Sequence record: PQ799574.1
DNA length: 64,000 nt
DNA from: Escherichia phage vB_EcoM_Maryam
Direction: 5' to 3' (one strand)
Shown here: piece after piece, positions 40,785 to 62,082 of the stretch
Position numbering within the stretch: the first letter of the stretch is position 1
Layout: every line of letters starts with the position of its first letter
Program-made: the position numbers and the translations under genes
The notes under the pieces: generated by a model
Told to the model about the DNA's origin: nothing
Database searches by the model: none
The model's input: the letters and a program-made list of their open reading frames with translations, nothing else

Positions 40785-40793
40785 ACTTACTCC

Positions 40794-42312: not shown

Positions 42313-42389
42313 TCATTTTTTCCATAGGCATCATTATATTTTCCTCACTGGTTAAAGATAGAGTAATTATAACATAATAAATTTAGGCA

Positions 42390-43238
42390 TTAATCAACTG
42401 CTATTGGATGAATAGCATTAAACTTATGAAATGCTTCTGATTTTTCTTTGCGCGAAACGCACATGCGAAGAACCTTTAATGGCTCGTCTTCTTCACCCAA
42501 CGATTTTCGTTTTTCAATATTAGAAGTTTTCCAACGAGCTTGCTCTGGAAACTCTCTATTGATTTGCTCAAGCGCTCTATTATGTTTAGAATTACTACGA
42601 ATTGAACTACACCCGCCAGGAGCTTGTGCTTTTCCAGATACAACCAGATATTTGAACAAGGCCAAATGCGGATAACCTTGATTAATTAAATTGAGAAATG
42701 CATACATATCTTCGCACAAATCAATTTTTCCATACCCAATTTGTTCTGTCGTAAGTTTTCCGAGGTCATACCATGTATTCGTGAATCCATATGAATTTTC
42801 ACGATAATTACCCCAAGATGAAGTAATTTTAAAAATTGGTAGGCGAGCATGACCGTGATAATACCCGCAATCCATGGCATCTTCAACGTATTGAATCAAT
42901 TCATAGAACTGTTCACGGGTTAATTGATTGACTTTATCTACACAACGACGGTCATCTCTTTTTCGCATTGAACTCATACGAATAGTAGTATCATCGTCAA
43001 TCATCCAGATTCGTTGACCTGCATACATATCAGTAATTGCTTTACGAGTACCGGCAATTCCGTTTACATCATCAGGAATAGTTATAATTTTAGCTCTAGA
43101 CCCATAGGCATCATAATAAGCTTTTTCTTCATGTTCACGCACTACAATATGGGGTTCATAATCAGTCGGAAACATATCAAGGGCAGAAACTGCCCCGACA
43201 CGCTGATAACTTGGAATTACGAATTGAATCATTTCCAC
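42390..43238 (-). CDS. putative glucosyltransferase at the beta-gt locus (T2/T6-type beta-glucosyl-HMC alpha-glucosyltransferase-like)
   Basis: 282 aa with DDD motif; lies between uvsX and 42; does not resemble recalled 351-aa T4 beta-gt. Confidence 0.5.
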   Translation of the reverse strand: MEMIQFVIPSYQRVGAVSALDMFPTDYEPHIVVREHEEKAYYDAYGSRAKIITIPDDVNGIAGTRKAITDMYAGQRIWMIDDDTTIRMSSMRKRDDRRCVDKVNQLTREQFYELIQYVEDAMDCGYYHGHARLPIFKITSSWGNYRENSYGFTNTWYDLGKLTTEQIGYGKIDLCEDMYAFLNLINQGYPHLALFKYLVVSGKAQAPGGCSSIRSNSKHNRALEQINREFPEQARWKTSNIEKRKSLGEEDEPLKVLRMCVSRKEKSEAFHKFNAIHPIAVD

Positions 43239-43969
43239 TCACCGTTATAATCTTTTTTCACAATATGAGTTTCGCCAGTATTCCACCAATGATCAACCAA
43301 GTAAAAATGACGAGAATATACATGAAGACTTCCAACATTCCATATAATAGAACCTGCTTTATACTGACGAGTTGAATCGCCGGCATTCAAATCAGATACT
43401 AATTTATCTAATACGTATTTTTGCCATGCATAATCATTACGGAATCCGAAGACCACGTCATTTGAGCGCATGCTTACTACTGCATTGACTTTCTTATCAC
43501 GAATCAGGTACTGTACTGTATTAGTACACATGAAATCTGACATACCATCTTTATTGTAGTCAAATTGCATGGATGGACGAGTATAAATCATGATACCACG
43601 TCGAGAATCAGGATTTTGACCAAGTTCAGCTAAACACATATCATACTGGGCATAGTTATCTTCTGACCAAATAGCCCAACCATAATTCGAGTTAATTTCG
43701 CCTTTAGAAGATGCTACCTGCTGCCAAATCTTTGGTGTTTCGCCTGGAATATCTTTAACAAACAAGCTCTTAGATTTATACCATTCAAGTTCACGCTGAA
43801 TGTATTCATCATTAAGAGCGCCAAAAATAAAGGGTTCATCTGCTACAAATGATGCGCCAATAATTTCAATAGTTTTAACGCCAGTTTTATCAACTACGAA
43901 ATCTTTTTCCTTTAATGCAGTTCCCAAATAAAAACGGATTTCTTCAACTGTCATAGAGTCATTAATCAT
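43229..43969 (-). CDS. 42: dCMP hydroxymethylase gp42
   Basis: 246 aa; thymidylate-synthase-like fold. Confidence 0.9.
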   Translation of the reverse strand: MINDSMTVEEIRFYLGTALKEKDFVVDKTGVKTIEIIGASFVADEPFIFGALNDEYIQRELEWYKSKSLFVKDIPGETPKIWQQVASSKGEINSNYGWAIWSEDNYAQYDMCLAELGQNPDSRRGIMIYTRPSMQFDYNKDGMSDFMCTNTVQYLIRDKKVNAVVSMRSNDVVFGFRNDYAWQKYVLDKLVSDLNAGDSTRQYKAGSIIWNVGSLHVYSRHFYLVDHWWNTGETHIVKKDYNGEWK

Positions 43970-44122
43970 TTAAACCTCAATTGATACATTCATATTTAAC
44001 TTGTAACAGTAATAAACCCCAACCTAAAATAATAGTCGGAATCATAAGAGGAACCGTTACACTATAGTATATACTTATTATAATCATCAAGATTAAAAGC
44101 AACACTTCTATAATTTTGCTTT

Positions 44123-44374
44123 TCATTCCTTCTCTCTGATGATAATTACTTGATTTGGCTGTGCAGACTTTTTAGTTTCACCCGCAATTGACCAAATAAA
44201 TGTAATAAACCAACCAATAATTGACCAGTTAAACAGCAAAGACGTGAAAAAGATTCCTACTGTCGATTTTGACCCACGCATCAAGGCGATAAACCATGGA
44301 AGCATGTATATAATAATAGCCAACACACCTGAAACTAAAACCATAAAAATTGAACCTGCTACTAAAGTTTCCAT
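44123..44374 (-). CDS. imm: immunity (superinfection exclusion) membrane protein Imm
   Basis: 83 aa, two TM segments. Confidence 0.8.
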   Translation of the reverse strand: METLVAGSIFMVLVSGVLAIIIYMLPWFIALMRGSKSTVGIFFTSLLFNWSIIGWFITFIWSIAGETKKSAQPNQVIIIREKE

Positions 44375-44381
44375 GTTTTCC

Positions 44382-44762
44382 TCACTTAGTCAAATTTTTT
44401 ACGCATGAATTATAAGAATTCACTACATACTCCATCGGAGCATTTTTACCGGTACGCCATTGGTAATTATTAGCCCAATTTGCCCAAAGCTCGGCGCAGT
44501 AGTTTTCAATTTTTTCTTCGCGTGTAATTACATCCGAATTACGATATGCTTGAGCAGATTCATCTGGACGAATAGCTTCGTCAAAATTTGCCTGCATTTG
44601 TTCTACTGTTTGCTTTGGAGCTTCTTTATAACACTTGACATTAGGATTATAAAACTTGCTTGAACAGTTTACAATTTTTCCTACATCAGACTGATTTACT
44701 ACCGGTCCTTGAGCCACACAACCAGTAAGACCTAATGCAATAACCAAAATAGCGATTTTCAT
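44382..44762 (-). CDS. putative lipoprotein adjacent to imm
   Basis: 126 aa; signal peptide with lipobox LTGC. Confidence 0.5.
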   Translation of the reverse strand: MKIAILVIALGLTGCVAQGPVVNQSDVGKIVNCSSKFYNPNVKCYKEAPKQTVEQMQANFDEAIRPDESAQAYRNSDVITREEKIENYCAELWANWANNYQWRTGKNAPMEYVVNSYNSCVKNLTK

Positions 44763-44772
44763 AATAATTTCC

Positions 44773-45021
44773 TCAAATGCAAGTAGTAATTACTCCAGTA
44801 GTGCTTATGCAGGTATTACCCATTTGCACACCTAAAGATCCATTTGTATTCACATGAAGATTATCATCAATTTTAACTGATATTTTACCATTAGTGTGAA
44901 TAACGGTGCTAGATTTAATCACAGGTTGAGTATCATTTTCAACACTAATAAATGGAACTGCTACTAATGCAACTAAACAAACTGCTAAGCATCCCATAAC
45001 AATTTTCATTTTATTCTCCAA
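44773..45021 (-). CDS. secreted/membrane small protein
   Basis: ORF track 82 aa; hydrophobic N-terminus. Confidence 0.45.
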   Translation of the reverse strand: MENKMKIVMGCLAVCLVALVAVPFISVENDTQPVIKSSTVIHTNGKISVKIDDNLHVNTNGSLGVQMGNTCISTTGVITTCI

Positions 45022-45025
45022 ATCT

Positions 45026-45055
45026 GTATCAGTAGTTGATAGTTGTATAGTACCA
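45026..45055 (-). promoter_or_regulatory. T4-type early promoter (GTTTACA 17 nt TACTAT)
   Basis: Reverse complement reads GTTTACAAGACTGTTCTTCTGTGGTACTAT. Confidence 0.5.
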
Positions 45056-45163
45056 CAGAAGAACAGTCTTGTAAACAGTTTTGTGAAAATTTTTTAGGGA
45101 ATTCTAAAGGTCCAGAATCATCTGTTTTTCATAAGTATAGATTTATATTACTTGTATGAAAAA

Positions 45164-45179
45164 GGGACCCGGAGGTCCC
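45164..45179 (-). terminator. GGGACC-loop-GGTCCC hairpin with U-run downstream of gene 43
   Basis: Inverted repeat read from sequence; A-run on plus strand. Confidence 0.55.
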
Positions 45180-45192
45180 TAGATTTATTCTA

Positions 45193-47888
45193 TCAGCCAA
45201 ACAGGAAGTCTAACGAAGCTTTTTCTTCATAGTCCATACCAGCCGATTCACACATGCCTGCAAGCGGTTTAACAAACGATTTTTGGAACAAAGTTGAGTA
45301 GTCAATCCAAGATAGTACATCAGAACGAATTTCTTTTGGAAGTTCTGTACCCGACGGCCAAGCAATGCACTTGTCGCCAAATGGATTTCCTTCACGTAAT
45401 GGAAGAACCATTACCTTATTTCCATCCAAAATTGGAGCTACACCCAGACCACTAACAGCTCGACGATAAGTTAGCACACCACGAATATGGAACGGGCATT
45501 TAAATCCTGGCCAACCTTTATCATCATATTTCGCTATATCGTTCGCAGTTTTTACTTCAGCAATAACTTTATAGTCAAGTTGACGATATTCTTTCTCGAA
45601 GTTCTTGTAATATTCTTGGACAGACTCTTCACCTTCCTGAAGAATACGACGAATACTTTCTTCAAGAGCTTCTTGAACTGCTTTAGGCGTTGAACTTTGC
45701 TGAGTTTCCATACCCATGATTTTTAGATGCGGTTCAGCAAAACGCTTATCTTCCATATCATATACGTTCAGAGCATAACGCTTTTTCGCTTTCCAAAATC
45801 CACCAACGCCCTTTGAACCAAGTGGAGGGCAAGAAATAGCTTCACGGTCCATATGCATCAGATGCTCGCGGTTATTCATATAATCACATAACTCACGATA
45901 TGCAACATCAATCATAGGTTCCATCTTTTTCTTACCGAACTGATTCATGAATTCAACTAAATCGTTCTGCTCTTTGAATCGGTCAAGACCAACTTTTTCA
46001 ATAACTTTATCTACACAAACATATACCGAATCAGTATCACCTGCTGCAATGAAATCTTCGCCATTAGTTCCGCACACTTTATTCAGATACTCATTAATTT
46101 TACGAGCAATCCACTGAATACCAACTTGGCCGAAAATTGTGATAGCAGTAGCATTTCGCAAATCATAGTAACGGAAATGAATATTACCAAGAGCACCGTA
46201 AAGGCTGTTAATAAGAATTTTACGGTTCAGCTGATTTGTATTAGCAAGTGTAGCCGCTTTTTCACATTCTTCAATCAAACTATTGAGAACAGATTCAGTA
46301 TAATTCGATAGTTCATTTAAGAAATCATCACTGAACTTAACATATCGTTCAACTTCAGGTTTAGTTGAACAAGACCCTGCGCCTTTCATAATAATCTTTT
46401 TAATAGCTTCGGCATTCATTTCTTCAGCGAACATTTTCTTTTTCCAATCTTTACGCTGGAAAAATACTTTAGCGATTTCCTTTGGAATGATACCTTCTTG
46501 ATGCTTATCGTACATCCATCCATTCGGAGAACAAGAATATTCATCACTCGGTTTAGGAGCTGTTCCTGCGATATATTCATGAATTGGATGAACTTTAAAC
46601 TGACCACGAATAGTCTCAGGACTAATGTTAACCTGACGAATAATGCTCGGATACAGAGACGTCAAGTCAAAACTCATAATATATCGACGAGCAATTGGTT
46701 TAGGTTCAAATACAAATGCACCCGGAAAACTCTGTTTAACGTGCGAACCTTGTTGAGGAATAACCTTATGTTCACCTTTCAATGAGTTAAAAATAATAGC
46801 ATCCCAGGTTTTAATAGGACTCATTACACCAGAAAAAGGCATTTTAGCGTAATAAGACATACTTAAAACTAGATCGATAAACCCGCGAATTTTATCAATT
46901 GCTTGAACTGATTCTACGTCAATGATGTTATAACTAATGTATCGTTGATGATTAGTCTCACGAAGTTTATTAATAGGACCGTCGTATGGTAATTTACCTT
47001 TTTTGGTTTCATGCTGAGCAACTGATTCCAAAGAGAATGACGGCAAATTAGTAAATGCGAATTTCTTATACAAATCTAAATAATCAAGAATAGATACGCC
47101 ATCAATAGAATAAATTTCTTTGCTACCGTACATATTTTGGATAAGTTTAGATTTTACTCGACCGATTGGAGAGAAGCGTTTCATACTACGTTCACCGAGA
47201 ACCATTTTAACGCGATTCATGATATACGGAACGTCAAATCCCTCAATATTCCAACCAGTAAAAATAGCAGGTCGTTTCTGTTCCCAGAGATTGATATATT
47301 CCATGAGCATATCACGCTCATTATCGAATGGCATATAAATTACTCGGTCAAGAATTTCTTGAGGAACTTCATCACCACCTTCACAGTCAAGCTTAGCAGC
47401 TAACTTTGCATCCCATTTTGATACTGAACCATACATTGAATTCAAAAGGTCGAAAACATAAAAACGATCATCAATTGAATCGTAATGAGTGATAGCATCA
47501 ATTTCATATTCAGCTTTCATTGGGTCAGGAAATTTATCACCAGTAACCTCAATGTCACAGTTAGCTACACGAACAAATTTTCGGTCATAAACAATTTCTG
47601 AACCGTATGTATCACTGATAAAGCGAGTTTAAAATCGTTCATACCGAGAGCTTCGAGACCGATGTCTTCCATTCGTTTCATCCAATCTCGAGCATCTTTC
47701 ATTGATGGAAATTTTTGAGGAGCGCAGTTTTTACCATAGATGTCTTTGTACTTTGACTCTTCCTTACAATGCCTAAACATAGTTGGAAGATATTCTACTT
47801 CACGAGTACGTTCCTTTCCATTTTCATCAATATAACGTTCAACAATATTATTTCCGACTGTTTCAATAGAGATATAAAATTCTTTCAT
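45193..47888 (-). pseudogene. 43: DNA polymerase gp43 interrupted by a 1-nt frameshift near 47619
   Basis: N-terminal 84 codons in ORF 47565..47888, remainder in ORF 45193..47520 in another frame; the second frame is open upstream and reads ISDTYGSEIVYDRKFVRVANCDIEVTGDKFPDPMKAEY. Confidence 0.85.
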
Positions 47889-47968: not shown

Positions 47969-48256
47969 TTAAATTTCTATTGTACGACGCGATATAACGG
48001 ACTTGCCATCTGTATTTGTGGTTTTGATAATCGCATGAAATGCGCGTTGGCGTGGGTAAACTAATCGTTGGAATTCTTTTTGGAATTCTATTTGTTTATC
48101 TTCCGGGAGGTCAAAAACCAGTTGGGTAGAAGACAGACCATATGTTTGTTTTAGATTTTCGAATATTAGAAAAGCTTCGGTAAACTGAATCTCTGATTGT
48201 GTCATATAATTTACCTTAATTACCAATCGTATATTTAGGAACGAGTTTCCATTCAT
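47969..48256 (-). CDS. hypothetical protein between regA and 43
   Basis: ORF track 95 aa; start likely internal. Confidence 0.45.
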   Translation of the reverse strand: MNGNSFLNIRLVIKVNYMTQSEIQFTEAFLIFENLKQTYGLSSTQLVFDLPEDKQIEFQKEFQRLVYPRQRAFHAIIKTTNTDGKSVISRRTIEI

Positions 48257-48585: not shown

Positions 48586-49131
48586 TTACCATTCCAATGC
48601 TAGTTTTTTGAGTTGTTTCTGTTCTTTTACGTTCTTAGTCACTTCTTTCAAAAAATCATCCGTGACTAAACCTTTTAGTTCTTTTAATACTAAAGGAAGT
48701 TTTCCATTTTTAGTAAGAATTGATTTATAGTTAATTGCATCATTTGTATTAACTTGATACCACTTAGCAAGTAACTTAATAATCAATACTTCGGTGGAAT
48801 CTTCAACCAGTTTTGCCCATTTACCGTATCTTTTACCACGAGGAACTGCAGCCATTAGATAATTAAAATGAGCTTCATCACTTAAGCCTGATCCAATTAA
48901 ATTCATAGCATATACAGCTGGCATGCACTCTGGAAATTGTGATAATGCATTTTCAACCATGAATTTTGAATAATCTTTTTGAGCAATAGAGCATTTAGTT
49001 TTATTATTGATAGCTCCAATTATTTCAAAAAATTCATTTTCAGCTTTTTCTTTAAAAGAATCAGCAGCGGATTGGACAGCTGTCCAATCTTTTGAATACC
49101 AAGCAAGTAGGAAAAGATTATGTATGCCCAT
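48586..49131 (-). CDS. 62: clamp loader small subunit gp62, N-terminus atypical
   Basis: 181 aa; from [15 protein letters not shown] onward matches recalled gp62, first ~9 residues MGIHNLFLL do not. Confidence 0.75.
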
Positions 49132-49237
49132 TTAGTTCTCCGGTAAATGGAATGCTAAAACCTGCTTTACGCGATCTTTATATTGCGATGAACGAAGAAA
49201 TGATAAAAGAATTAAAACGTCAACTGAAGGTGATTTA
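49111..49237 (+). pseudogene. 3' fragment of an unidentified ORF ending at breakpoint 2
   Basis: Frame open only from the stop at 49108; encodes ...MLKPALRDLYIAMNEEMIKELKRQLKVI then stop. Confidence 0.3.
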
Positions 49238-49239
49238 AT

Positions 49240-49458
49240 TTGGCCAGGGAAATTAATTCAAAATCCGATTATTTTAATTCTCTCAATGATAAAGATAAAA
49301 ATCTAATACGGCATTTTATTGTTGAGATGGGATATACCGATACACGCGATTTAAGAGAACATATATTTGAATGTGGTGTAGCTAAAAAGTTTTCATTCAC
49401 ATGCAAATGTTTGAGAGAGGTAATTCAGCACTATGAACAATTTAGTCGCAAAACATAA
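49240..49458 (+). CDS. hypothetical protein
   Basis: ORF track 72 aa. Confidence 0.5.
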   Translation: MAREINSKSDYFNSLNDKDKNLIRHFIVEMGYTDTRDLREHIFECGVAKKFSFTCKCLREVIQHYEQFSRKT

Positions 49459-49541
49459 TTTTAATAAAGCTTCTGTTCATAAGGATAAGAAGAAAGCGTT
49501 TAAAGAATCTAATCGCAAGCAGAAACATAAGGGGAAGGTCT

Positions 49542-49820
49542 ATGATTATTGATTCTCAGTCTGTGGTTCAATACACAATCAAAATTGATATTCTAGAAAA
49601 GCTATATAAGTTTCTACCAAATTTATACCACTCAATTGTTAATGAATTAGTTGAAGAACTACATCTCGAGAATAATGATTTCTTGATTGGAACTTATAAA
49701 GACCTCTCAAAAGCAGGATATTTCTACGTAATTCCAGCACCAGGAAAAAGTATTGATGATGTATTAAAAACTATAATGATTTATGTCCATGATTATGAAA
49801 TTGAAGATTATTTCGAATGA
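49542..49820 (+). CDS. arn: Arn (anti-restriction nuclease) -like protein
   Basis: 92 aa; position upstream of asiA. Confidence 0.6.
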   Translation: MIIDSQSVVQYTIKIDILEKLYKFLPNLYHSIVNELVEELHLENNDFLIGTYKDLSKAGYFYVIPAPGKSIDDVLKTIMIYVHDYEIEDYFE

Positions 49821-49981
49821 GTCATAATCTTGAAAAAGTAATCGAGCATAATGTAGCTCAGGAACGTAAGTCGTTCAAGGAATTCGTAGAAAAAATTTTT
49901 GAAGAAAATAGCACAGACCAGTTTACAAATCAAACGTCTGATGATATTATAACAAAGTCAACTAATTGAGTGGTATAGTTA

Positions 49982-50254
49982 ATGAATAAAAATATTGATA
50001 CAGTTCGTGAAATTATTACTGTTGCGTCTATTTTGATTAAATTTTCCAGAGAAGATATTGTTGAAAATCGTGCTAATTTTATTGCATTTCTGAATGAGAT
50101 TGGAGTAACGCATGAAGGTAGAAAGTTAAATCAGAATTCATTCCGTAAAACTGTTTCTGAATTAACTCAAGAAGATAAGAAAACCCTCATCGACGAATTC
50201 AACGAGGGTTTTGAGGGTGTATATCGATATCTAGAGATGTATACGAACAAATAA
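49982..50254 (+). CDS. asiA: anti-sigma-70 factor AsiA
   Basis: 90 aa MNKNIDTVREIITVASILIKFSREDIVENRANFIAFLNEIG... Confidence 0.9.
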   Translation: MNKNIDTVREIITVASILIKFSREDIVENRANFIAFLNEIGVTHEGRKLNQNSFRKTVSELTQEDKKTLIDEFNEGFEGVYRYLEMYTNK

Positions 50255-50911
50255 TTATTTAGCCCTTCCTAATATTCTGGCCGCCTGAGCACATATTGAT
50301 TCAAGGCGGTCATTACTTATATGATCATTTCTATACCAGTACATGGTTATCGTTCCAGCATAGATATTATCCAAATTAAAATATGGACAACTGTACATGT
50401 AGTTTATTTCAGGAGTAGGCTTTTTAGTTGGTAAAAAAGCAAATTTTGAGTTGGAATAATAATGACGTCCATTTAAATGAACTGCATATTCATCCATAGT
50501 TTTATCAACAGGATATCCTCCAAGTGATTTTTCACTTATTGTTGAAGGTAATTTTCCTTCATATGCTATAATATCAACAAAATAGTTTAAGTTTTTAGGG
50601 CGGAAAGAATACACCGCACTAAAGTCTGCCTCAGATGATATATGAACTATCTGGAGTTGTTCCAGGGCGACAGATTCAAAGCGTGCATTTCTTTCCTTTT
50701 CAATAATTTCACTGTATGTTTCATACTTTGATTGCTTATAGTACTCAAAGAAACTATCTCCCCTATACCAAACAATCGCCATCATAAATAAAAGAATTAC
50801 GACAGCTACACGGGAAGCAAGAACTTTCCCGGTAGCGTTATCTTTGAACAAGCGATCTAGAACACCAAATAGAATATCAGAGGGCGAAAATGATATTCTA
50901 GGTGCTGCCAT
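50255..50911 (-). CDS. t: holin T
   Basis: 218 aa with single N-terminal TM and large periplasmic domain; convergent with asiA. Confidence 0.9.
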   Translation of the reverse strand: MAAPRISFSPSDILFGVLDRLFKDNATGKVLASRVAVVILLFMMAIVWYRGDSFFEYYKQSKYETYSEIIEKERNARFESVALEQLQIVHISSEADFSAVYSFRPKNLNYFVDIIAYEGKLPSTISEKSLGGYPVDKTMDEYAVHLNGRHYYSNSKFAFLPTKKPTPEINYMYSCPYFNLDNIYAGTITMYWYRNDHISNDRLESICAQAARILGRAK

Positions 50912-50941
50912 AGACCCTCCTTTTAAGGATATTTATTCAAA

Positions 50942-51718
50942 TTATACTCTTGGACCATATATTGCTCCAACATTTTGCCACGTTGGAGAAGACCCTATAA
51001 CAGCATATCCAGAATCGCCGCCATTGTATTCAGATCCTTGACCACGAATATTACATCTACCTCCTGCGGCGCCTACCTCACCACCGCTTCCGCCATTATA
51101 GATACCGTTCACGGACCCCGATCCAGGCGCATAAAGAGTACCAGCAGTTGCGCCTGATTGCATATCAATAGATCCGCCAGGTGCACCAAACGGACGCCCA
51201 CCACCACCACCAAAGGTTAATCTCATTTGTGAAAAAGGAGAATAATACCCACCGCCACCACCGCCACCACCGGCAGCAATAGCTCCGCCATTATTAATTC
51301 TTAGTCTCCCACCAATATCGTTTTGAATACAATGACCTCCAGCTGAGCCAGGACTATTGCTACCGCCATTACCTCCACGACCATACATCGTTACGCCGTG
51401 TATATTTAACTGAACATATTCATTTGGTGTATCTCCGTACATAAAGAATAAAGGAACATCTTTAGAATATGATACTAAATCACCTGTAATATTAAACACT
51501 ATAGGTGCACTACCTGCCTCAAAACATCTATCTCGGAACCATTGACCATTGAAGTTATGGTCTGCTCCAAGCGTGTGAATTATTTCAACAGATCGACCTA
51601 TCATATTACTCATCCAAAACGGAACGCCCATTCTTAATCTTGCGGCTGCTCCTGCCATCCAATGGTCTCCAGTCTGTGCCAATGCAGAAGTTCCTATCCA
51701 CGGTCCTGCTACTGCCAT
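50942..51718 (-). CDS. 38: long tail fibre adhesin gp38, T2/T6-type with glycine-rich repeats
   Basis: 258 aa from ATG 51718 ([15 protein letters not shown]...), GGAGG SD; poly-Gly runs; ORF track starts at upstream TTG. Confidence 0.8.
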
Positions 51719-51728
51719 ATAAACCTCC

Positions 51729-51744
51729 AAGGGGCCGAAGCCCC
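51729..51744 (-). terminator. GGGGC-UUCG-GCCCC hairpin between genes 37 and 38
   Basis: Identical core to hairpin at 47947-47962. Confidence 0.45.
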
Positions 51745-51749
51745 TCTTA

Positions 51750-54700
51750 TTATTTTAACAATGATTTAACTAATGCTTTAAGTTCTTCGATTTCTGATTT
51801 AAGTTCTGCAATTTCTGCAGTATGCTCATTGATTGCAGCTGTATTTAAACCAATTACACCGTTATAGTTCAAACGAAGTAAAGCTTCGCCATCAGGGTCA
51901 CCTTCAACTAATTCTGGTAAAATAGCTTGAACTTCTTGAGCAATTAAACCGGCGTTAGGTTCCCATTTCTGATTGCCTTCTTCATCTAGGCCTCGCTTCT
52001 GCATATAAGTGTAACCGTTAATTTTGGAAAGCTTCTCAGAAGCATTTTCAAATTTAACAAGGTCTTTTTTAACACGAATATCAGAACGGACATAAACATC
52101 TCGAACAAATGTGGAATAGGCATCGCTCTGTTGGACTAAATGACCAAAAGAAATAATAGCTCTTCCTTGTTCAGTCCACAAAGCACCAGTGGTATCCCAA
52201 AGACCTTCATGGAGATGGTAAGCGGACGACCATGAAGCAATATGCATTCCATTTGCAACCATATTAATTCGCCCATCACCGCCATGAACTAATCCAGTAT
52301 CATTATCACCAATAACAAGACATGGTCCAGTCCACACCGGGTCACCACCGCCAGCTGATAATCTTGCTCCGGTTTGAACCATGTTAGGAACATACAGAAC
52401 TCCAGTGTGGTGGAATTCATAGATAGCTTGTGGGTCAGAACCGTTTTCCTGGTTACCTACACGAATAATACCTTGTGCCCAGTTATTAGTAATGCGACGC
52501 ATACCAAAATCAACGCTAGATATGTATCCTTCATTCGTAATAGCAGATTTTCCTTTAATAATAGGATAATAACTATCATTACCAACATTACCAAAATCTA
52601 CAAATATCGGAGCTTCTTGTCGCCATTGGTTTCCCCAATCGCCAGCCTGGTGCGCAGTCCATTGTGTACCGTTTATATGAAGGCGGTCTCTATTAAAATT
52701 AAATGTTCCTTGACCTTGAGGAGAAAGCGATATTTCGCCGTTATTTGTTATGTATACACCACCCTGTGTAATGTAACTGTAAAAACCTAGACCGTTGTCG
52801 CCGCCACCTTTGCCTATATACCAGTTATTTGTACCACCTACATCACTACGGATATGTGATGAAGCACCTCCGCCAGCAGTTAAAACGAGAGCATCATTGC
52901 CTGCTGATAAAGTCAATTTACCAGTCATCGTGTCGCCTTCTTTAGAAACACGAGTAGCTATTGCATCGCGAATATTTGTGGTTTCTCCCGCAGAAGTAAA
53001 CGATTTCCAAATATCTGAGAAAATATTACCATTACGAGCAATAGTAGCTTCACCGCCGCCGACTTGAACGTTATCGGGGAAATTAACTGTACCGTCTTGA
53101 TTAAAACGAGACGTATGGCCTTGTGAACCATCTTCTTTTAAATGATGTAAAACAAATGTACCCGAATTAATTTCAGTACCTAAAGACCAAACAGCTTTAC
53201 TGTTTAAAAACTTCTGTTTAACAATAGGATAATATTTACTTACTGCGTCATCATCGATTTCCTGGAAAATAGGAGCTGCTTGAACATATTGAATATCATA
53301 ACCACCAGCGCCAGCGCCGTGACCAGTAAATTTAATATATCCGTTTGCTGCGAACGTATTGTAACTTGATTGTAAATCTGGAATAGTAACTTTACCAGTA
53401 TCTAAAGCCATACTAAACGGGCGAAGTGGACCGATATCACCATGTTTACCTTCACCATAAGCAGTTGGAATAATATGAAGACTGCCTTCTGAACGTCTAA
53501 AAATAGCTCCATAATCTGCGTTCCAAATGCGAAGAGCATTCACTGCTCCAGATGAAATTTCGCCTGTTGTGTGAACTCCTCTATTTCCAGCAGTAACACC
53601 AGATGATTCAAATGAACCGTTAACGTTCATTTCTACTTCACCTGTTGTAAGTCTTTGAATATAGCTCATCCAGCTAGTTGCATCGGAAATTTCCATGACA
53701 TTTTTGCGATTACCTTCACTAGGAATAGTAAATGTATTACCCCACACGGAAATTGTCATATTATCAACTGAACTACTACCAGTTGTGTTACCTCTAAACA
53801 TCAGTGTAGAAGCATTATTTCTACCATCGATATTAACAGAACCACCAATAACGTCAATATTACCAGGAGTAACTAACAAACCGCCATGAGTATTAATGTT
53901 TGTGGTACCCTTGCCGCGGAAATAATGATGATAGTTACCGCCTTGATAATATCCTAAAAGAGTCTGACCATCTCCAAACGCGTTATTATCGTGATATGTC
54001 ACGACAGTAGCAAGAGCATAATTTTCAGTTGGAGGAGTAGTTAAATCGGTTCCGTTAGTAGAATATCCAGCTACAAATTTTCTTAGGCTAGTTGTTTCGC
54101 TAGGACTAAATAAAAACGTTTTTGTTCCATTATTAACGCTAAAATAATATCCATCTTGATGCCATTTAAATCCAGTATCATTATCTCCTAAAGCAATACT
54201 AGATTGTCCTAATATTGAATAATCTTTATTACCAGGTGTTAAACCAATAGAAATTGAGTGACTTGATTTAATTCCGCCGCTCCAAGTAAATGACCAAAGA
54301 TAGGTGTCAAGTCCATCACCTGCATACCAAGTTATTCCATCATTATCTTTAACTTCATGGAAAATACCAGAACCAACGGCATTACGCATGACACGAAGAT
54401 GATTAATAGCAGTAGTGCTTTCAGACAATGGAACATTGTCTGCCATCGAATAGATGTCATAATCACCCGTAGATTTATTATTAGTAATGACTTTGTTGGT
54501 CAGAATTTGTGGAGACGAAATAGATTTCCATGCTGATACTTCAGGTGAAGTAAATAGTCCACTGCCTGAAAATGCATAAGTGCTTTCGCTACCAGCGGCG
54601 TAGTCTTGAACCCTGATATTAAGTACTTGTGTAGTTAAACCATCATTAGCCGGGGCATAAATGATTCCGCGTTCGCGACTATTGTTATCGAAAAAACGAA

Positions 54701-55061
54701 CATGCGCTGTACCTGAACTTTTTGTAATAAGTTCTCCGCCTTCAGTCATAATCTGCCCAGCGGAAATAATATCGCGAGTTACTCGAGCAATACCAATTAA
54801 ATTAAAATTACCAGTCTGAGTGAAGACGCCATTTAAAGTATAATCGCCAGTTTGGTTATAATTGCCTGTATGAATAACATTCCCGTCAATACTACCGCCT
54901 TTAGCAAAACCCAGATCAATAATATTTCCTTGGTCATCTTTAGTAAAAAGTACACGGTCTTTTAAGTTTATAGCCAATTCACCTTCGGCTAATACTGAAG
55001 CGGCAGGACGTGCTCCTGCAGTTTTGCTTCTTTTAAATTGTATTTGTTTTAAAGTAGCCAT
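51750..55061 (-). CDS. 37: long tail fibre distal subunit gp37 with C-terminal intramolecular-chaperone-like domain
   Basis: 1103 aa; glycine-rich fibrous repeats; C-terminus SDIRVKKDL...[15 protein letters not shown]...[14 protein letters not shown]. Confidence 0.85.
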
Positions 55062-55069
55062 AAGTCCTC

Positions 55070-55726
55070 TTAATAATAGCCGAAATCTTGAACAGAATCC
55101 TTAATAACAATTTGGTCAAATCGTGGAACATGCGAGGGTTGAGATGCAGGATTCTGTGAAAAAAGGTTTGGCGCAGTTAAATTTCCTGTCATAGTGTCTC
55201 CAGAGCGTAATACCCTAGAGTTTGCGTTTGCTGTAACAATATTTATTGCTCCATCAACATAATCTTTCCGCGTAAGGTCATAATTATTTACTGGTGATAA
55301 CGAAGTTACACGGATTTGTGATGCTTCAATTACGCCCTTTGAGCTAATATCTCCATTTCGTGTGTTAATTACTACAGTTCTACCTGCTGTTCCTTGTGAT
55401 GATTTAAAACCAATACCATACCACGAAACAATATCCATATTTGTAGTATCATACGTGGCACTATCACCAGGACCAGCAAAAATACCATTATCGCCTGACC
55501 CTGCGCCAGGAACAGTCATTCCTTTATTAAAAATTACTTTATTTAAATAAGTACCACCATTAGCTTTAGAAACGAAATCGTTATCTGCAGCTTGTGGTTT
55601 ATTATATTCTGAATATATTTTAAATGATTTATAGAGTACATCGTCACCGGCTGGATTCAATGGAAAATTTCCTTGATGCCAAATGACAGAGCCTCCGGTT
55701 GTTGAACCTACTTTTAAATCAGCCAT
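55070..55726 (-). CDS. 36: long tail fibre hinge protein gp36
   Basis: 218 aa; position between 35 and 37. Confidence 0.85.
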   Translation of the reverse strand: MADLKVGSTTGGSVIWHQGNFPLNPAGDDVLYKSFKIYSEYNKPQAADNDFVSKANGGTYLNKVIFNKGMTVPGAGSGDNGIFAGPGDSATYDTTNMDIVSWYGIGFKSSQGTAGRTVVINTRNGDISSKGVIEASQIRVTSLSPVNNYDLTRKDYVDGAINIVTANANSRVLRSGDTMTGNLTAPNLFSQNPASQPSHVPRFDQIVIKDSVQDFGYY

Positions 55727-55749
55727 TGTATGCCCCTTTATTTTAATAG

Positions 55750-55757
55750 TATTTATA
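55750..55757 (-). promoter_or_regulatory. late promoter TATAAATA upstream of gene 36
   Basis: Reverse complement of TATTTATA at 55750-55757, ~24 nt upstream of gene 36 ATG. Confidence 0.6.
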
Positions 55758-55766
55758 AAGAAAAAG

Positions 55767-55786
55767 GGAACCCGAAGGCTCCCTCA
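55767..55786 (-). terminator. GGGAGCC-UUCG-GGUUCCC hairpin with U-run between genes 35 and 36
   Basis: Imperfect inverted repeat with one G-U pair, UUCG loop in minus-strand RNA. Confidence 0.5.
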
Positions 55787-55788
55787 AT

Positions 55789-56904
55789 TTAAACTTCTCT
55801 AAATTCCTGTCCAAACACTTTACCAGTTTTAGACGATGCTTGCGTAGGAAGTACCATTATATCCGGAGGTGAAGCAGATTCACAGATATAATTAACTCGA
55901 ATACCATTGACGCCAAACTCAGCAGGTTTTGAAATGCCACCATTTCTTGACACTTCAGAAAAGCTTAAATTTCTCATACCGCCTTGACCCGCTTGTGCAG
56001 TTCTCTGTGCGTATATCGTAAATCCAACTGCATTTTCTGGAACAACTACATAATCTTCTTTTAATTCCCAAGACCCAGCTTGTCCGGTAAACTCAGCATG
56101 TGTTGAAGAAATATATCCATCCGATTCATTATAAAATCTAATGGATATATTCGTAGTTCCAAGAGCAAGTAAATCGGCATCAGCATATAGTTGTGCTTTA
56201 AGATAAAGAACATCGCCAGGAATTAAATTGTAGTCAGAAAGTTTACTTATCGCGGATGAAGTTGGTAGACGTGCAATTTCGTTATTAGTTCCACCAACCG
56301 CTGACATAAACTGCTCAACGCTTTCATATGTTCTTCTTGGAAACCCGGTAGCTCCAACGTCTTCTAAACTGTCAAATACAACATCTAAAATAGTTTGATA
56401 ATCATCAGTGCTTTTTCTGTTGCTCAGTTTAACATGCTCTAATGCGATAGCTCTTTTAGAAGAAGTGTAAAAAGAAGCATATGATACATCAAATCTTGAC
56501 AATACAGAGTCAGATGGAAAAGCAGACGTTCCTGCTGTTCTTAGCCAAGATACTACTTCAGGAGGAAAATTAACCTTTCCGCTAGTTAATATAGCAACAA
56601 TTCTATTATTCGTCAAAGAATTCATGAAACTAACAAAAGCAGCTGATGTAGTATCATTTGAAGTAGAAAAAGCATATGACTTACTATCAACTAATGCTCC
56701 TGTAGAAGGGTCAAAAACTCTTAAATGAAGACCTGCGCTAAATGTTTGACTTCCTACAGGATTATCCTGAAATTTAACATATGGTCCTGCTGTAGAAAGC
56801 GGGCAAGAACCCGCTATACTTATTTTGTATCTTACTGAATTACTTTCCGATAAAAATGGCGTTTGGACGTATCCTTGTCCAAACTCTGCCATAAATTTTT
56901 CCAT
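55789..56904 (-). CDS. 35: long tail fibre hinge connector gp35
   Basis: 371 aa; follows gene 34. Confidence 0.85.
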   Translation of the reverse strand: MEKFMAEFGQGYVQTPFLSESNSVRYKISIAGSCPLSTAGPYVKFQDNPVGSQTFSAGLHLRVFDPSTGALVDSKSYAFSTSNDTTSAAFVSFMNSLTNNRIVAILTSGKVNFPPEVVSWLRTAGTSAFPSDSVLSRFDVSYASFYTSSKRAIALEHVKLSNRKSTDDYQTILDVVFDSLEDVGATGFPRRTYESVEQFMSAVGGTNNEIARLPTSSAISKLSDYNLIPGDVLYLKAQLYADADLLALGTTNISIRFYNESDGYISSTHAEFTGQAGSWELKEDYVVVPENAVGFTIYAQRTAQAGQGGMRNLSFSEVSRNGGISKPAEFGVNGIRVNYICESASPPDIMVLPTQASSKTGKVFGQEFREV

Positions 56905-56912
56905 AATACCTC

Positions 56913-59900
56913 TTATTCAACCCATTCAAATTTAACAGTTTTATTCACTGGGTCAGGAATAATACGAACATTACCAATTCGCAAGAAATCACGAATAGTA
57001 AGATTACCCATTATAGCATTATCAGATGGTAAAGCACCGATATCAGATGGCTGAGGAGGGTTACCTCCGTCAAATACCTGAACAAAACTTGACCAAGAGT
57101 TTTTGGTTTTCTGCCATGTGCGTGTCCAACGAGTGGTACGCGCTTCTGGTGTTGTTGGATAAGTAATCCAATCTTGGTAAAGCGAATCAAGTGTGTTACC
57201 AAACTGAGTCAATGTACCAGGAGATTTAACTTCTTCGCCACGTTCTAAGTATGGAAGTCCAGTCACTTCATTAGTTTTTTCAACCATTTTAAAATAACCA
57301 GGGAATTGATTATAAGTGGCTGAATCGTTAATATCAATTGACCAGAATCCTACTGTATCAGTTGTTGGTGCGCGGGTATATAAATCAGATGTTTTAGTGC
57401 CCTGAGAACGAATTCTCGAGTTAACAGTCAAACCGCCTGAATTTATAGTAGCACCTTTGGCAATAATTAAGCTTTCGCCAATCGTTACTTGGCCAGATGC
57501 ATTATTAATAGCTAAAGGACGTAATCCATTAAATCCACCAGTCTGATCACCCGATGCAGTAAGCATAAAATTCGTTACTGATCCATCATTGCGAACAATG
57601 AAACCATAATTTCCGTTAATAGCACGGAAAGCATTTGCGCTTCGAGAAATAATTTCACCAGTTGCAGTGACTGAATTACCAAATGTTGCTACACCATTTG
57701 CATTCAATGTTCCTGAAGCATTAACATTTATAGGTGTTACTGTACCGTTGATATTAAATGTTATATTTCCGGCTTTATTGCGCTGAGAATAAAAATGACT
57801 AGATGTTTCATCACTAACTTCAAATACGGTAGAACGTGTTGTATCTAATTCCCCACTAAATTGATTTCCCCACACTCTAACAGTCATCGTTTGGGCTGGG
57901 TTTGTTCCAGTTTGAGGTCCTTTCTCAAAAATCAATCGAGTTGCTGTTCCAGTATTAGAAATAGTTAATGTACTATTTGCTGAAACTGATCCACCGAACG
58001 TAGCAGTACTAGATGATACAAGAGGGGCACTCAGATTCGTTTGTTGGGTTAAGGTTAGTGAACCATTAACTGTCTGCGCAATGTCCCTACGAATGAACTG
58101 AGATGAATCTAGACCATCCAATAAATTACTATCTACAGCTTTTGCTTTTAATGGCAAATAATTTGCTAATACACGGTTTAATTCATATGGTGATACTGCA
58201 TAACCATTTTTCTCATATGATTCTAATGGCTGTGTTGAACCTACCGTATCATTACCAACAAACGTTAATGAACCAGAAGAAGTTTTAACAAAGCCCCTTA
58301 TCGCAGTAGTTGCTGCCCAAGTAGATTCGCTCTGCACAATCCATTTTAAATTTTTTGGAGATACAGCAGTATTTGCTGACGTTCCAGTCACAGTTTCAGA
58401 CTGAGTTGCAACTTTAATAACACCTTCTTGTGCTTCAGTAGATTTAGTACCTAAAAGCTTTTTAGGAGTTATTAAAACATTATCTAATGTTCCTGCAGCA
58501 GCTTCGACCTGTGTAGCTACACGAAGTGTACCACGCTGTGTCTCATTTGCTTCAAGAATATCAAGGGTATAATGGTCCCAGAGAGTTCCTGATTCAACTA
58601 ATCCAGATAGAGCAACAACAGAAGTACGATCAGTACTATTAAATCTGGTTTTAATTTTTAATGGTGTAGAGATACGAGTATCGTCGACGCCTGCGTCGAA
58701 TTCAACCTGTGTAGCAATTTCAGCTATACCACTTAAACTTTCAGTTGCTCTACGGTCATTTAAAGTTTTAGGAGTGACTGCACGAGTATAGTCAGTTCCT
58801 GTGTTAACTTCACTTTGCGTAGCAATTTCAATTAAACCAATTCTTGCATCAGTTGATGTCTTTTTATGTAACGTTTCTGGCGTTACAACCGCATTTGCCC
58901 ATCCTTCTTGGCTTTGTCCAGCAATTACTTCACTTTCAACTGCTAAAATTACTGCGCCTTGTTGCGTTGGAGTAGCTTTATACTGATCCAAAGCTTTAGG
59001 TGAAACAACTAAATTATTAGTGTTTTTATTATAAACATTCGTACCATTTAATTCACGACTAGAAGCTGGAGTAGCACCTGCAGTAGATACAAAGGTTACA
59101 ATACCAGATAATGATTCAGAACCTTGACGAGCTTGAAGCTTTTTAGGAGTGATGATTGTAGTATCATCGGTTCCTGCATTAGTTTCTTGCTGCGTAGCAA
59201 TTTCTGCGACACCTCTACGAGTTTCTGTAGCAGTTCTTTCATTCAGCTTTTTAGGAGTAATGATAAGGTCATCTGCAAAAGAGAATGTGGTGTTCTGATT
59301 CACTTGAGCAGTAGTTGCTATTCTTGCAATACCTCTACGAGTTTCTGTAGCAGTACGATTAGCTAACGTTTCTGGAGTAATTGCCAATTCTTTTTGTGGA
59401 GAATTTTCTAAATCAGCATTAGCTTGAGCTTGTGTAGCTAAAGCAATTACACCTAATCTTGCTCTAGTAGAATCATTTAAAGAATCTACTCTTTCTACGG
59501 TTGGAACATTTTGCTGTACAACCCAATATTTTCCGTCAGAATCTTCTATATAAGCAAGCTCTAAAACTGGAACATAATTAGTTTCACCGTTAAAAACTAA
59601 TTCTTGAACTGTAACCCACTCAGCTTCAGGTGGATATTCTGAGCGTTTTGGGAATTGCAGCAATTGAACTGAAGAAGCAATTTTATCTTCACCTGCAGCT
59701 TTGATTTTAACCGTTTGTCCTTTTCTCATGTAATTCATAGAAATTTTGACAGTATCACCAACAGAAATATCAGTCGGAAGCTGAAGTTCAATTGTTTGGG
59801 TTGTTCCATTATTCGCGCCAAATACCATGACTTCTTCGTTTGGACGAATATTAGAATTAGTTGTTATAATGCGTAAACGTGCTTTACTATCCCCGTCAAA

Positions 59901-60782
59901 CAATCTCCACAATTTCTCATTATCATCAAACATCAAGAAACCGTCAATCGATGTACGGCCTTCAATGGAATGAGTTCCAACTTCTTGTACTGAAGTTGTT
60001 TCATCATATGTAGTAACAATTGTGTGATAAAGAGGATTTAATTTATCCAAATCAACGAAATTAATAATATCGCCATGATTGGCAAATCTTGGAAGTTTAA
60101 TATTAATTGCTGAAGCAGAAGTAAATCTACGTACGATAAAATCGTTTGATTGTGCCTGATAGAGACTCGCAGGAGTTACAACTACAGCTTCTCTACTATA
60201 ATCAGCAACATACATTTGCCACAGACGATTACTAAAAATTAAAACTATCTGTGATTTTGGATGAGTCATTAGTACTGAACGTACTTGCTGACCTCTAAAA
60301 TTTACAATGCTTTGTACCGGAGCTGTAATTAAAACTTGATTAACTCCAGGTTTTCCTCCAATATCTTGGAGAACGATGGTATCACCATCAATTGGAGAAG
60401 ATGGTAAAGTAAATGTAATGTCATTACCAGCTGCAGTATCAACTGAAATTGATTCGCCCGATTTTAATTGATAAGGTCCTGATGAAACAGTTGTCCAGTT
60501 TGCATCAGTACGTAACGCTCTCCATCGTACGCTATTAAAAGCTCCTGCTGGTTTTGGAATATCATTTATAGCAGCCCAAAAGCGGTTATCATAAATGATT
60601 ACAAAATCTTTTAAATATCCACGAGTTGGATCATATTGTTGAACTGTGTTTTCTTGAATTAAGTAATCAACGTTAACGCCGTCAGTTCCTACGGCACGAT
60701 CAGCTAAAGCTACGTTGATTATTTTATCACCACCTGCGTCCAGACCATCTTCTGCTCTGAACTTTCTTTTAATCTCGGCCAT
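56913..60782 (-). CDS. 34: long tail fibre proximal subunit gp34
   Basis: 1289 aa, size identical to recalled T4 gp34. Confidence 0.9.
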   Translation of the reverse strand: MAEIKRKFRAEDGLDAGGDKIINVALADRAVGTDGVNVDYLIQENTVQQYDPTRGYLKDFVIIYDNRFWAAINDIPKPAGAFNSVRWRALRTDANWTTVSSGPYQLKSGESISVDTAAGNDITFTLPSSPIDGDTIVLQDIGGKPGVNQVLITAPVQSIVNFRGQQVRSVLMTHPKSQIVLIFSNRLWQMYVADYSREAVVVTPASLYQAQSNDFIVRRFTSASAINIKLPRFANHGDIINFVDLDKLNPLYHTIVTTYDETTSVQEVGTHSIEGRTSIDGFLMFDDNEKLWRLFDGDSKARLRIITTNSNIRPNEEVMVFGANNGTTQTIELQLPTDISVGDTVKISMNYMRKGQTVKIKAAGEDKIASSVQLLQFPKRSEYPPEAEWVTVQELVFNGETNYVPVLELAYIEDSDGKYWVVQQNVPTVERVDSLNDSTRARLGVIALATQAQANADLENSPQKELAITPETLANRTATETRRGIARIATTAQVNQNTTFSFADDLIITPKKLNERTATETRRGVAEIATQQETNAGTDDTTIITPKKLQARQGSESLSGIVTFVSTAGATPASSRELNGTNVYNKNTNNLVVSPKALDQYKATPTQQGAVILAVESEVIAGQSQEGWANAVVTPETLHKKTSTDARIGLIEIATQSEVNTGTDYTRAVTPKTLNDRRATESLSGIAEIATQVEFDAGVDDTRISTPLKIKTRFNSTDRTSVVALSGLVESGTLWDHYTLDILEANETQRGTLRVATQVEAAAGTLDNVLITPKKLLGTKSTEAQEGVIKVATQSETVTGTSANTAVSPKNLKWIVQSESTWAATTAIRGFVKTSSGSLTFVGNDTVGSTQPLESYEKNGYAVSPYELNRVLANYLPLKAKAVDSNLLDGLDSSQFIRRDIAQTVNGSLTLTQQTNLSAPLVSSSTATFGGSVSANSTLTISNTGTATRLIFEKGPQTGTNPAQTMTVRVWGNQFSGELDTTRSTVFEVSDETSSHFYSQRNKAGNITFNINGTVTPINVNASGTLNANGVATFGNSVTATGEIISRSANAFRAINGNYGFIVRNDGSVTNFMLTASGDQTGGFNGLRPLAINNASGQVTIGESLIIAKGATINSGGLTVNSRIRSQGTKTSDLYTRAPTTDTVGFWSIDINDSATYNQFPGYFKMVEKTNEVTGLPYLERGEEVKSPGTLTQFGNTLDSLYQDWITYPTTPEARTTRWTRTWQKTKNSWSSFVQVFDGGNPPQPSDIGALPSDNAIMGNLTIRDFLRIGNVRIIPDPVNKTVKFEWVE

Positions 60783-60816
60783 TCTCCCGGGCTCCTATTG
60801 TGTTTTCAATAATAAG

Positions 60817-60824
60817 TATTTATA
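60817..60824 (-). promoter_or_regulatory. late promoter TATAAATA upstream of gene 34
   Basis: Reverse complement of TATTTATA at 60817-60824, ~35 nt upstream of gene 34 ATG. Confidence 0.6.
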
Positions 60825-60886
60825 CTTGTTTACTTTAAGATTTGGATGGTATATAATAGAAATCTCACTAATTGAACGAGGTTCAT

Positions 60887-61804: not shown

Positions 61805-61812
61805 GGTGAATA

Positions 61813-62082
61813 ATGGCTAAAAAAGAAATGGTTGAATTTGATGAAGCTATCCATGGCGAAGATTTGGCTAAATTTATTAAAGAAGCATCTGATCATAAAC
61901 TGAAAATTTCCGGTTATAATGAACTGATTAAAGATATTCGAATTCGTGCCAAAGATGAACTTGGTGTTGATGGCAAGATGTTTAATCGTCTGTTAGCTTT
62001 GTATCATAAAGATAACCGTGATGTGTTTGAAGCTGAAACTGAAGAGGTAGTTGAACTTTATGACACAGTTTTCTCTAAATGA
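61813..62082 (+). CDS. dsbA: dsDNA-binding protein DsbA
   Basis: 89 aa; position between rnh and 33. Confidence 0.75.
   Translation: MAKKEMVEFDEAIHGEDLAKFIKEASDHKLKISGYNELIKDIRIRAKDELGVDGKMFNRLLALYHKDNRDVFEAETEEVVELYDTVFSK

Follow-up and report, generated by a model that had tools for sequence, protein, structure and literature searches.

A mosaic gene 38 allele of a T-even-like phage encodes a T6-type gp38 adhesin with Tsx as its most likely receptor

Introduction

The gene that follows gene 37 in this T-even (Tequatrovirus-like) phage raises three linked questions: whether its product is a receptor-recognizing adhesin or a T4-type gp38, which receptor its variable segments would select, and how its glycine-rich coding region came to vary. 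A sequence-only reading of the locus had favored a T2/T6-type adhesin with host-range-determining segments between glycine islands, and had regarded the repetitive DNA as prone to slippage. Taken as a whole, the explanation that gene 38 encodes a T6-type gp38, most likely Tsx-binding, in a recombinant allele is in our judgment highly probable. Gene 38 here is a new allele, of a kind whose family, structure, receptor logic, and recombination behavior have all been published already.

Results

Gene 38 lies directly downstream of gene 37. An open reading frame on the minus strand occupies exactly 50942-51718 of the window (the whole stretch of DNA that was analyzed, 64,000 nt), from an ATG at 51718-51716 to a TAA at 50944-50942. 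Its product has 258 aa and the start codon follows the double stop (TAATAA) of gene 37 after a spacer of 31 nt, which confirms the earlier description of an approximately 258-aa product from the gene after gene 37. The strand was absent from that description. A gap of 30 nt separates the end of gene 38 from the holin gene t, and the order 37-38-t, all on the minus strand, matches that of PE37, T4_ev151, and T2. The features of the locus are as follows.

50255-50911, minus strand: gene t (holin), downstream neighbor (Pfam Phage_holin_T, E 5.9e-117)
50942-51718, minus strand: gene 38, 258-aa receptor-recognizing adhesin gp38, stop codon included (ORF and translation, Pfam and PDB matches)
51724-51728, minus strand: GGAGG ribosome-binding site, 5 nt before the gene 38 ATG (read from the sequence)
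51731-51744, minus strand: GGGGCUUCGGCCCC tetraloop hairpin in the 31-nt gene 37/38 spacer (sequence and predicted fold)
51750-55061, minus strand: gene 37, distal long-tail-fiber subunit of 1103 aa and partner of gp38 (Pfam, S16 gp37 alignment)
51753-52085, minus strand: predicted self-cleaved intramolecular chaperone of gp37, residues 993-1103 (placed by motif position; putative cleavage)

The hairpin in the spacer was found in the minimum-free-energy and centroid folds alike; the stability of its 71-nt context did not differ significantly from that of shuffled sequences (z = -1.23). A look-up in a large gene collection returned no record of the exact gp38 protein.

The product of 50942-51718 is a gp38 adhesin of the T2/T6/S16 type, specifically T6-type. 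The Pfam model GP38 (PF05268) matches residues 45-258 over its whole 218-position profile with 238.7 bits (8.8e-71), and Gp38_N (PF21721) matches residues 1-40 with 70 bits (1.7e-19), against cut-offs of 25 bits for each model. The closest solved structure is the receptor-binding domain of PP01 gp38 (9v85, E 1.7e-79), followed by the gp37-bound S16 gp38 (6f45_D, E 5.6e-49, residues 1-255). An AlphaFold2 model built from 53 homologues (mean pLDDT 93.1, pTM 0.84) predicts a beta-helix and a polyglycine-II sandwich, and in a Foldseek search of this model against the PDB only 9v85 (E 5e-27) and 6f45_D (TM 0.83/0.86) had E <0.001, the next match having E >5. As a negative control, BLASTP found no similarity to the 183-aa T4 gp38 (E 1.4; best segment just 11 residues). 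The adhesin identity follows from the agreement of the Pfam models, the solved structures, the predicted fold, and this control, and the claim of a T2/T6-type adhesin in place of a T4-type gp38 is thereby upheld. Homology search had been named in advance as the refuting test, and what it returned was a clear relationship to gp38 adhesins. The label "T2/T6-type" itself is right at the family level but too generic, as the protein is 84% identical to T6 gp38 and 49% identical to T2 gp38.

The partner protein gp37, with its S74 chaperone, fits an adhesin-type fiber. Its C-terminal 190 aa align to S16 gp37 (6f45_A, E 3.4e-43), and it carries a Pfam Peptidase_S74 chaperone domain at residues 993-1052. 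The motif DVYVR^SD at residues 988-994 corresponds to the cleavage sites DLNVS^SD of S16 and DVYIR^SD of the fPS phages (PMC7917993), and by this analogy gp37 would cleave itself after DVYVR.

[quoted passage not shown] The map was obtained by placing the scheme of Trojet et al. (PMC3157838) on a 53-sequence alignment (52 homologues plus gp38), in which conservation was expressed as the mean majority-residue frequency per column. The parts of the protein, from the N-terminus to the C-terminus, are encoded as follows.

51599-51718, minus strand: N-terminal attachment domain, residues 1-40, with W7, W20, and W35 (Pfam Gp38_N)
51386-51598, minus strand: linker and central beta-helix domain, residues 41-111 (AlphaFold strands, pLDDT 90-96; 6f45_D alignment)
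51362-51385, minus strand: GRM1, YGRGGNGG, residues 112-119 (conservation 0.88, no indels)
51341-51361, minus strand: variable part of HVS1, SNSPGSA, residues 120-126 (conservation 0.54, 2 gap columns)
51248-51274, minus strand: GRM2, A-GGGGGGGG, residues 149-157 (codon reading, 53-sequence alignment)
51212-51247, minus strand: HVS2, residues 158-169 (conservation 0.36)
51185-51211, minus strand: GRM3, GGGGGRPFG, residues 170-178 (conservation 0.99)
51095-51184, minus strand: HVS3, residues 179-208 (conservation 0.52, 9 gap columns)
51059-51094, minus strand: GRM4, residues 209-220 (53-sequence alignment)
51023-51058, minus strand: HVS4, residues 221-232 (conservation 0.36)
50993-51022, minus strand: GRM5, residues 233-242 (53-sequence alignment)
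50945-50992, minus strand: conserved C-terminal motif, residues 243-258 (53-sequence alignment)

The N-terminal domain has the features of a docking module. Three helices (residues 8-16, 21-27, and 36-39) are present in the model, W7 is invariant, and W20 and W35 are kept in at least 90% of the sequences. In S16 gp38, these three tryptophans plug into pockets of the gp37 trimer (PMC6851490), and residues 1-40 of the protein studied here may likewise dock on the tip of the gp37 trimer, a role taken from that S16 work (PMC6851490). At the DNA level, this domain (51599-51718) is 100% identical to that of T4_ev151.

Glycine makes up 60 of the 258 residues overall (23%) and 32% of residues 116-258. 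The run G150-G157 (51248-51271), followed by Y158 and Y159, occupies the position of polyglycine-II (PGII) helix 3 of S16 gp38 (151-GGGGGGGG-158; PMC6851490), and a second run comprises G170-G174 (51197-51211). Across the 53 sequences, the five GRMs have conservation values of 0.71-0.99, compared with 0.36-0.54 for the variable segments, and all indels fall in the latter, with 16 gap columns in HVS1-HVS4 and 0 in the GRMs. The two runs and this contrast in conservation bear out the description of long poly-glycine runs split by variable segments. The proposal that the variable segments are host-range determinants likewise fits the conservation pattern and the published work (PMC3157838, PMC12032242, PMC6851490, PMC12892980). 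The residue A149, which precedes the eight-glycine run, had been considered as a unique oddity and was ruled out as such: in a set of 124 sequences, A occupies position 149 in 4, compared with G in 104 and S in 11.

The sequences of the hypervariable segments point to the nucleoside channel Tsx as the most likely primary receptor on E. coli K-12. Across residues 158-232, gp38 is 100% identical to the adhesins of FL04 and MIZ4 (Krischvirus), 93% to that of T4_ev151, and 88% to that of T6. Identity over the same residues is 40% to T2 (FadL), 41% to PE37 (PP01-like), and 37-64% to the OmpA-typed FL18, FL08, AV119, and M1 together with JSE. The four OmpA-type references stood in for K3 and Ox2 gp38, and JSE has an RB49-like adhesin, RB49 being OmpA-typed. 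Segment by segment, gp38 carries the T6-type set of four HVSs. HVS1 (SNSPGSA) is identical to that of T6 and has one difference from FL04; HVS2, HVS3, and HVS4 are each 100% identical to FL04, and 92%, 83%, and 92% identical to T6, respectively, with HVS3 being 90% identical to T4_ev151.

The neighbors that share these loops have been typed genetically. FL04, FL15, FL23, and FL44 lost infectivity upon tsx deletion in MG1655 mutants (PMC12032242), WilhelmHis (Bas35) is Tsx-dependent as shown with complementation (PMC8594841), and T6-like adhesins bind Tsx in E. coli (PMC3157838). The gp38 of WilhelmHis is 93.1% identical to ours over residues 129-258. The main text of the 2026 receptor-screen preprint makes no mention of receptor typing of T4_ev151. 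The prediction of Tsx is based on the identity of HVS2-HVS4 to the Tsx-dependent FL04 and of HVS1 to T6. The sequence-only reading had put forward nearest-neighbor comparison as the way to predict the receptor, and that typing gives Tsx.

It is unlikely that OmpA, OmpF, FadL, OmpC, or the LPS core replaces Tsx as the primary receptor of this gp38 adhesin or serves alongside it. Small differences do matter in this family: the gp38 of PST, a few residues away from that of T6, also uses OmpA, and the substitution Q206L occurs in RB51 and RB68, in RB51 switching OmpF to OmpW. The protein studied here itself differs from FL04 at residue 122 (HVS1, S and not G) and at A149 (GRM2). Furthermore, the T6-like adhesin of fPS-65, with a C-terminal region 93.8% identical, uses LPS inner-core heptoses on Yersinia. 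One to few loop substitutions can thus widen or switch the receptor specificity of gp38 adhesins, and because the fPS-65 adhesin works via the Yersinia LPS inner core, the receptor on hosts other than E. coli may differ. However, the loops HVS2-HVS4 are fully identical to those of a Tsx-dependent phage, all typed close neighbors (FL04, FL15, FL23, FL44, WilhelmHis, and T6) depend on Tsx, and the OmpA-, FadL-, and OmpC-type loop sets are just 37-64% identical. We therefore retain Tsx as the predicted primary receptor on E. coli K-12.

Host range is the practical point of this prediction. With Tsx as the predicted primary receptor, loss of tsx is the expected resistance route, and strains without functional tsx, E. 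coli B REL606 among them, are predicted to be poor hosts (PMC8594841).

The variation of gp38 arises via loop substitutions, loop indels, and recombination between the motifs. That the poly-glycine codon runs would instead be slippage-prone simple repeats that generate adhesin length variants, as had been suggested, is very improbable. Tandem Repeats Finder does report two short tandem arrays, 15 bp of (CCA)5 (51198-51212) and 24 bp made of 2.7 copies of a 9-nt unit (51249-51272). The description of 51,160-51,300 as GGN/CCN repeats is correct insofar as these two small arrays exist, but the repeats do not extend throughout the interval, in which 38% of the codons encode glycine. The slippage claim finds no support: both arrays are small, all four glycine codons are mixed in gene 38 (26 GGT, 16 GGA, 13 GGC, and 5 GGG), 114 of 124 homologues keep a GRM3 run of exactly five glycines, and the GRMs are free of gap columns in the 53-sequence alignment, whereas the HVSs contain all 16. 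A long homogeneous tandem repeat with a copy number varying among relatives was not found in gene 38, and the word "slippage" is absent from Trojet et al. (PMC3157838). The apparent variation in the run length of GRM2 is due to substitutions at the ends of the run. The glycine motifs are under strong structural constraint, and recombination with cross-overs in conserved stretches is the pattern seen in place of slippage.

Sequence comparison indicates that gene 38 is a mosaic, T4_ev151-like in codons 1-150 and 250-258 and FL04-type (Krischvirus) in about codons 151-248. Pairwise identity to T4_ev151 and FL04 was calculated over sliding 60-nt segments. From 52,290 to ~51,540, a stretch that comprises the gp38 N-terminal domain as well as the tip and S74 domain of gp37, identity to T4_ev151 is ~100%. 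Between 51,270 and 50,970, the sequence is 95-100% identical to FL04 but just 87-92% identical to T4_ev151, and past 50,970, where gene 38 ends and gene t lies, the identity to T4_ev151 is back to 100%. The informative sites, i.e., positions where T4_ev151 and FL04 differ, are distributed along the gene as follows.

Codons 1-150: 77 sites T4_ev151-like, 5 FL04-like
Codons 151-248: 6 sites T4_ev151-like, 25 FL04-like
Codons 250-259: 13 sites T4_ev151-like, 0 FL04-like

Fisher tests on these counts gave p = 1e-14 and 5e-7. The 5' transition is diffuse, with mixed sites over codons 149-173 (GRM2, HVS2, and GRM3), and its 3' counterpart is placed between codons 248 and 250, inside the PTWQNVG motif. 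The cassette at 50975-51262 has its six best DNA matches at 95.5-96.9%, five of which count as Krischvirus (FL04, MIZ4, KMB43, and LF73P4 carrying the label directly), with FL15 outside the label count; the best Tequatrovirus match to the same cassette reaches at most 91.7%. Neither T4_ev151 nor FL04 is an actual parent of gene 38, and we infer the history and direction of the exchange from these sequence comparisons.

The transitions agree with the published view of GRMs as recombination joints for module shuffling, and engineered gp38 swaps recombined the same segment, "from HVS2 onwards" (bioRxiv 10.64898/2026.04.02.716166). The attachment domain of gp38 and the tip of gp37 move as a single block, a co-transfer that is predicted by their physical interaction. 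A more specific account is that the allele derives from a fairly recent natural exchange between Krischvirus and Tequatrovirus of the HVS2-HVS4 cassette alone, with cross-overs in GRM2-GRM3 and in the C-terminal motif; we put it forward tentatively, at somewhat less than an even chance. If true, it would be a natural case in which phages of different genera recombined at glycine motifs.

The surroundings of gene 38 call for some caution about the record. No T-even genome is colinear with the window, which consists of three blocks. The first (1-13988) matches positions 32001-45988 of PV290051.1 (vB_EcoT_BCU-2) with 100% identity and stops 18 codons into gene 45; the second (13989 to about 49104) starts within motA and ends within gene 62, whose N-terminus is lost; the third (about 49101-64000) starts within an ORF of the arn region and carries asiA, t, 38, 37, 36, 35, 34, rnh, and 59. 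PV290051.1 is a 46.9-kb record labeled "complete genome." Both block joints cut genes; gene 44 is absent altogether, as are the remainder of gene 45 and most of motA. The patchwork is probably an assembly artifact, with concatenated or misjoined contigs as the simplest explanation.

Damage to gene 38 itself from such errors, leaving a chimeric allele and not a functional gene, is nevertheless very unlikely. Errors of this kind are suggested by two gene-cutting joints in the window and by the loss of 1 nt, compared with T4, from the essential gene 43, which is broken as a result. In contrast, the reading frame of gene 38 is intact over its full length; the gene can be aligned with its relatives from end to end, with no gaps in the conserved motifs; and the confidence of its structural model is high. 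The tail-fiber block is colinear with PE37, T4_ev151, and T2, including the flanking genes 37 and t, and the mosaic transitions sit where natural and engineered exchanges occur. Single-base details of the allele could be unreliable, as the surrounding assembly contains errors.

Discussion

A working model of the adhesin can be proposed by analogy with its solved relatives. Following trimerization, gp37 would probably cut off its C-terminal 111-residue chaperone after R992, as suggested by S16 and PP01. One gp38 monomer may then cap the exposed gp37 tip via its N-terminal three-helix domain with W7, W20, and W35. As polyglycine-II helices, the glycine-rich motifs are predicted to form a rigid sandwich, which would present the hypervariable loops, and these loops would contact the surface loops of an outer-membrane protein. 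The present allele probably arose by recombination, in which an FL04-like specificity cassette was joined to a T4_ev151-like unit made up of the gp37 tip together with the N-terminal domain and beta-helix of gp38; the putative exchange points fall within GRM2-GRM3 at one end and within the conserved C-terminal motif at the other. The mosaic pattern illustrates the modular swapping of specificity cassettes among phage genera, and current understanding is unchanged by these findings.

Comparison with known gp38 proteins delimits what is common to the family and what is particular to this allele. T4 gp38, a 183-aa assembly chaperone, shares just the gene name and the position after gene 37 with our protein, and in T4 the C-terminus of gp37 itself binds the receptor (PMC6851490, PMC12032242). 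That gene 38 encodes such a T4-type chaperone outside the virion has next to no probability: name and position are the same and some database homologues are labeled "distal long tail fiber assembly catalyst," but BLASTP against T4 gp38 (E 1.4) refutes it, the lengths differ (258 aa vs 183 aa), adhesins account for every Pfam, PDB, and fold match, and gp37 has its own S74 intramolecular chaperone. Within the gp38 adhesin family, the FadL/OmpF adhesin of T2 has the same gene position and GRM/HVS layout, with just 49% overall identity and 0-33% in the individual HVS2-HVS4 loops.

The gp38 proteins of the Salmonella phage S16 (PDB 6F45) and of PP01 (PDB 9V85) have a three-domain fold in common with ours, i.e., a helical attachment domain, a beta-helix, and a polyglycine-II sandwich (PMC6851490; PMC12892980). 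Identity in the Foldseek alignments is 44% to S16 gp38 (6f45_D) and 62-65% to PP01 gp38 (9v85), and the loops differ. PP01 is a phage of E. coli O157 whose gp38 binds OmpC, unlike the Tsx predicted here. The classical Tsx-binding adhesin of T6 is closer, with the same architecture, the same four HVS types, and 84% identity overall; it has 261 aa, a different type of N-terminal domain (MAVVGVPGW..., 55% identical), and several substitutions in the beta-helix.

Two of the known alleles match different parts of this one. T4_ev151 gp38 (LR597660.1) is the best overall match, with 96% amino-acid and 94.5% nucleotide identity, the same gene order, and DNA that is 100% identical over the gp37 tip, the gp38 N-terminal domain, and gene t, but its specificity cassette is just 87-92% identical in DNA, and its HVS3 differs from ours (TISAPGA vs TLYAPGS). 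FL04 gp38 (Krischvirus, PP358550.1), which is grouped with those of MIZ4, KMB43, and LF73P4, is 100% identical over residues 158-232 (HVS2 to HVS4); it is also 97% identical over residues 41-148 and 96.5% identical in DNA over 50975-51262. It departs from our protein in the N-terminal attachment domain (just 58% identical), in the last residues (QNRGAIYGPAV), and at positions 122 and 149, where it has G and our protein has S122 and A149. FL04 belongs to a different phage genus and has an extra small ORF between gene 38 and the holin gene.

Relatives of the adhesin gene in Krischvirus

The beta-helix, the central domain of the gp38 adhesin, and the specificity region (HVS2-HVS4) of three Krischvirus phages, FL04, MIZ4 and KMB43, share 88-100% DNA identity with the Tequatrovirus-type gene of our window, whereas the gp38 of JSE, also a Krischvirus phage, is only 57% identical. 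This distribution of sequence identity suggests transfer of a T6-type adhesin gene between phage genera.

The distal long-tail-fibre subunit gp37 (gene 37, window 51750-55061) is also mosaic, alternating between stretches like those of PE37, a related phage with a PP01-like gp38, and stretches like those of T4_ev151, the best overall gp38 match. Near 53,700-53,600 and 52,950-52,300, gene 37 is 94-100% identical to PE37 and only 23-85% identical to T4_ev151; at 52,290-51,750, it is T4_ev151-like at 100%, with PE37-like identity of 62-95%. A hairpin lies between the two fibre genes:

51731-51744, minus strand: UUCG-tetraloop hairpin GGGGCUUCGGCCCC, after the stop of gene 37 and ahead of the ribosome-binding site of gene 38

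The hairpin was seen in both the centroid and the minimum-free-energy folds, and the stability of its 71-nt context was not significantly above that of shuffles (z = -1.23).

Integrity of the assembled sequence

Three blocks make up the window, a patchwork whose joints, at 13988/13989 and about 49101-49107, interrupt genes. At the first joint, motA is fused to gene 45 after 18 codons of gene 45; at the second, an ORF of the arn region is fused to gene 62, whose N-terminus is missing. The block 1-13988 is inverted in orientation relative to the other blocks and corresponds at 100% identity to positions 32001-45988 of PV290051.1 (vB_EcoT_BCU-2). Gene 44 is missing from the window altogether, as are the remainder of gene 45 and the greater part of motA. 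The patchwork most likely reflects contig concatenation or misassembly, not biology.

The DNA polymerase gene is also interrupted:

45193-47888, minus strand: DNA polymerase gene 43, split, with the break near 47,620

Gene 43 occupies two ORFs (107 and 775 aa) because of a single-base deletion relative to T4 (T4 GCTTATAT, window GCTT-TAT). This deletion in an essential gene is probably a sequencing error.

Other genes and comparison with known phages

Three further ORFs were assigned to PHROG families:

47969-48256, minus strand: small conserved ORF (phrog_3826, E 1.5e-33, residues 23-95 matched)
22134-23954, minus strand: topoisomerase II large subunit, 606-aa ORF (phrog_543, E 1e-295)
63050-63682, plus strand: homing endonuclease ORF, 210 aa (phrog_7504, E 8.5e-134)

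The small ORF sits between regA and gene 43 and shares about 40 nt with the end of regA. The homing endonuclease ORF immediately follows the helicase-loader gene 59, and the annotation of PE37 shows this order too. In T4, the topoisomerase II large subunit is split into genes 39 and 60; in the window, by contrast, it is unsplit, an unbroken ORF that matches its family at full length.
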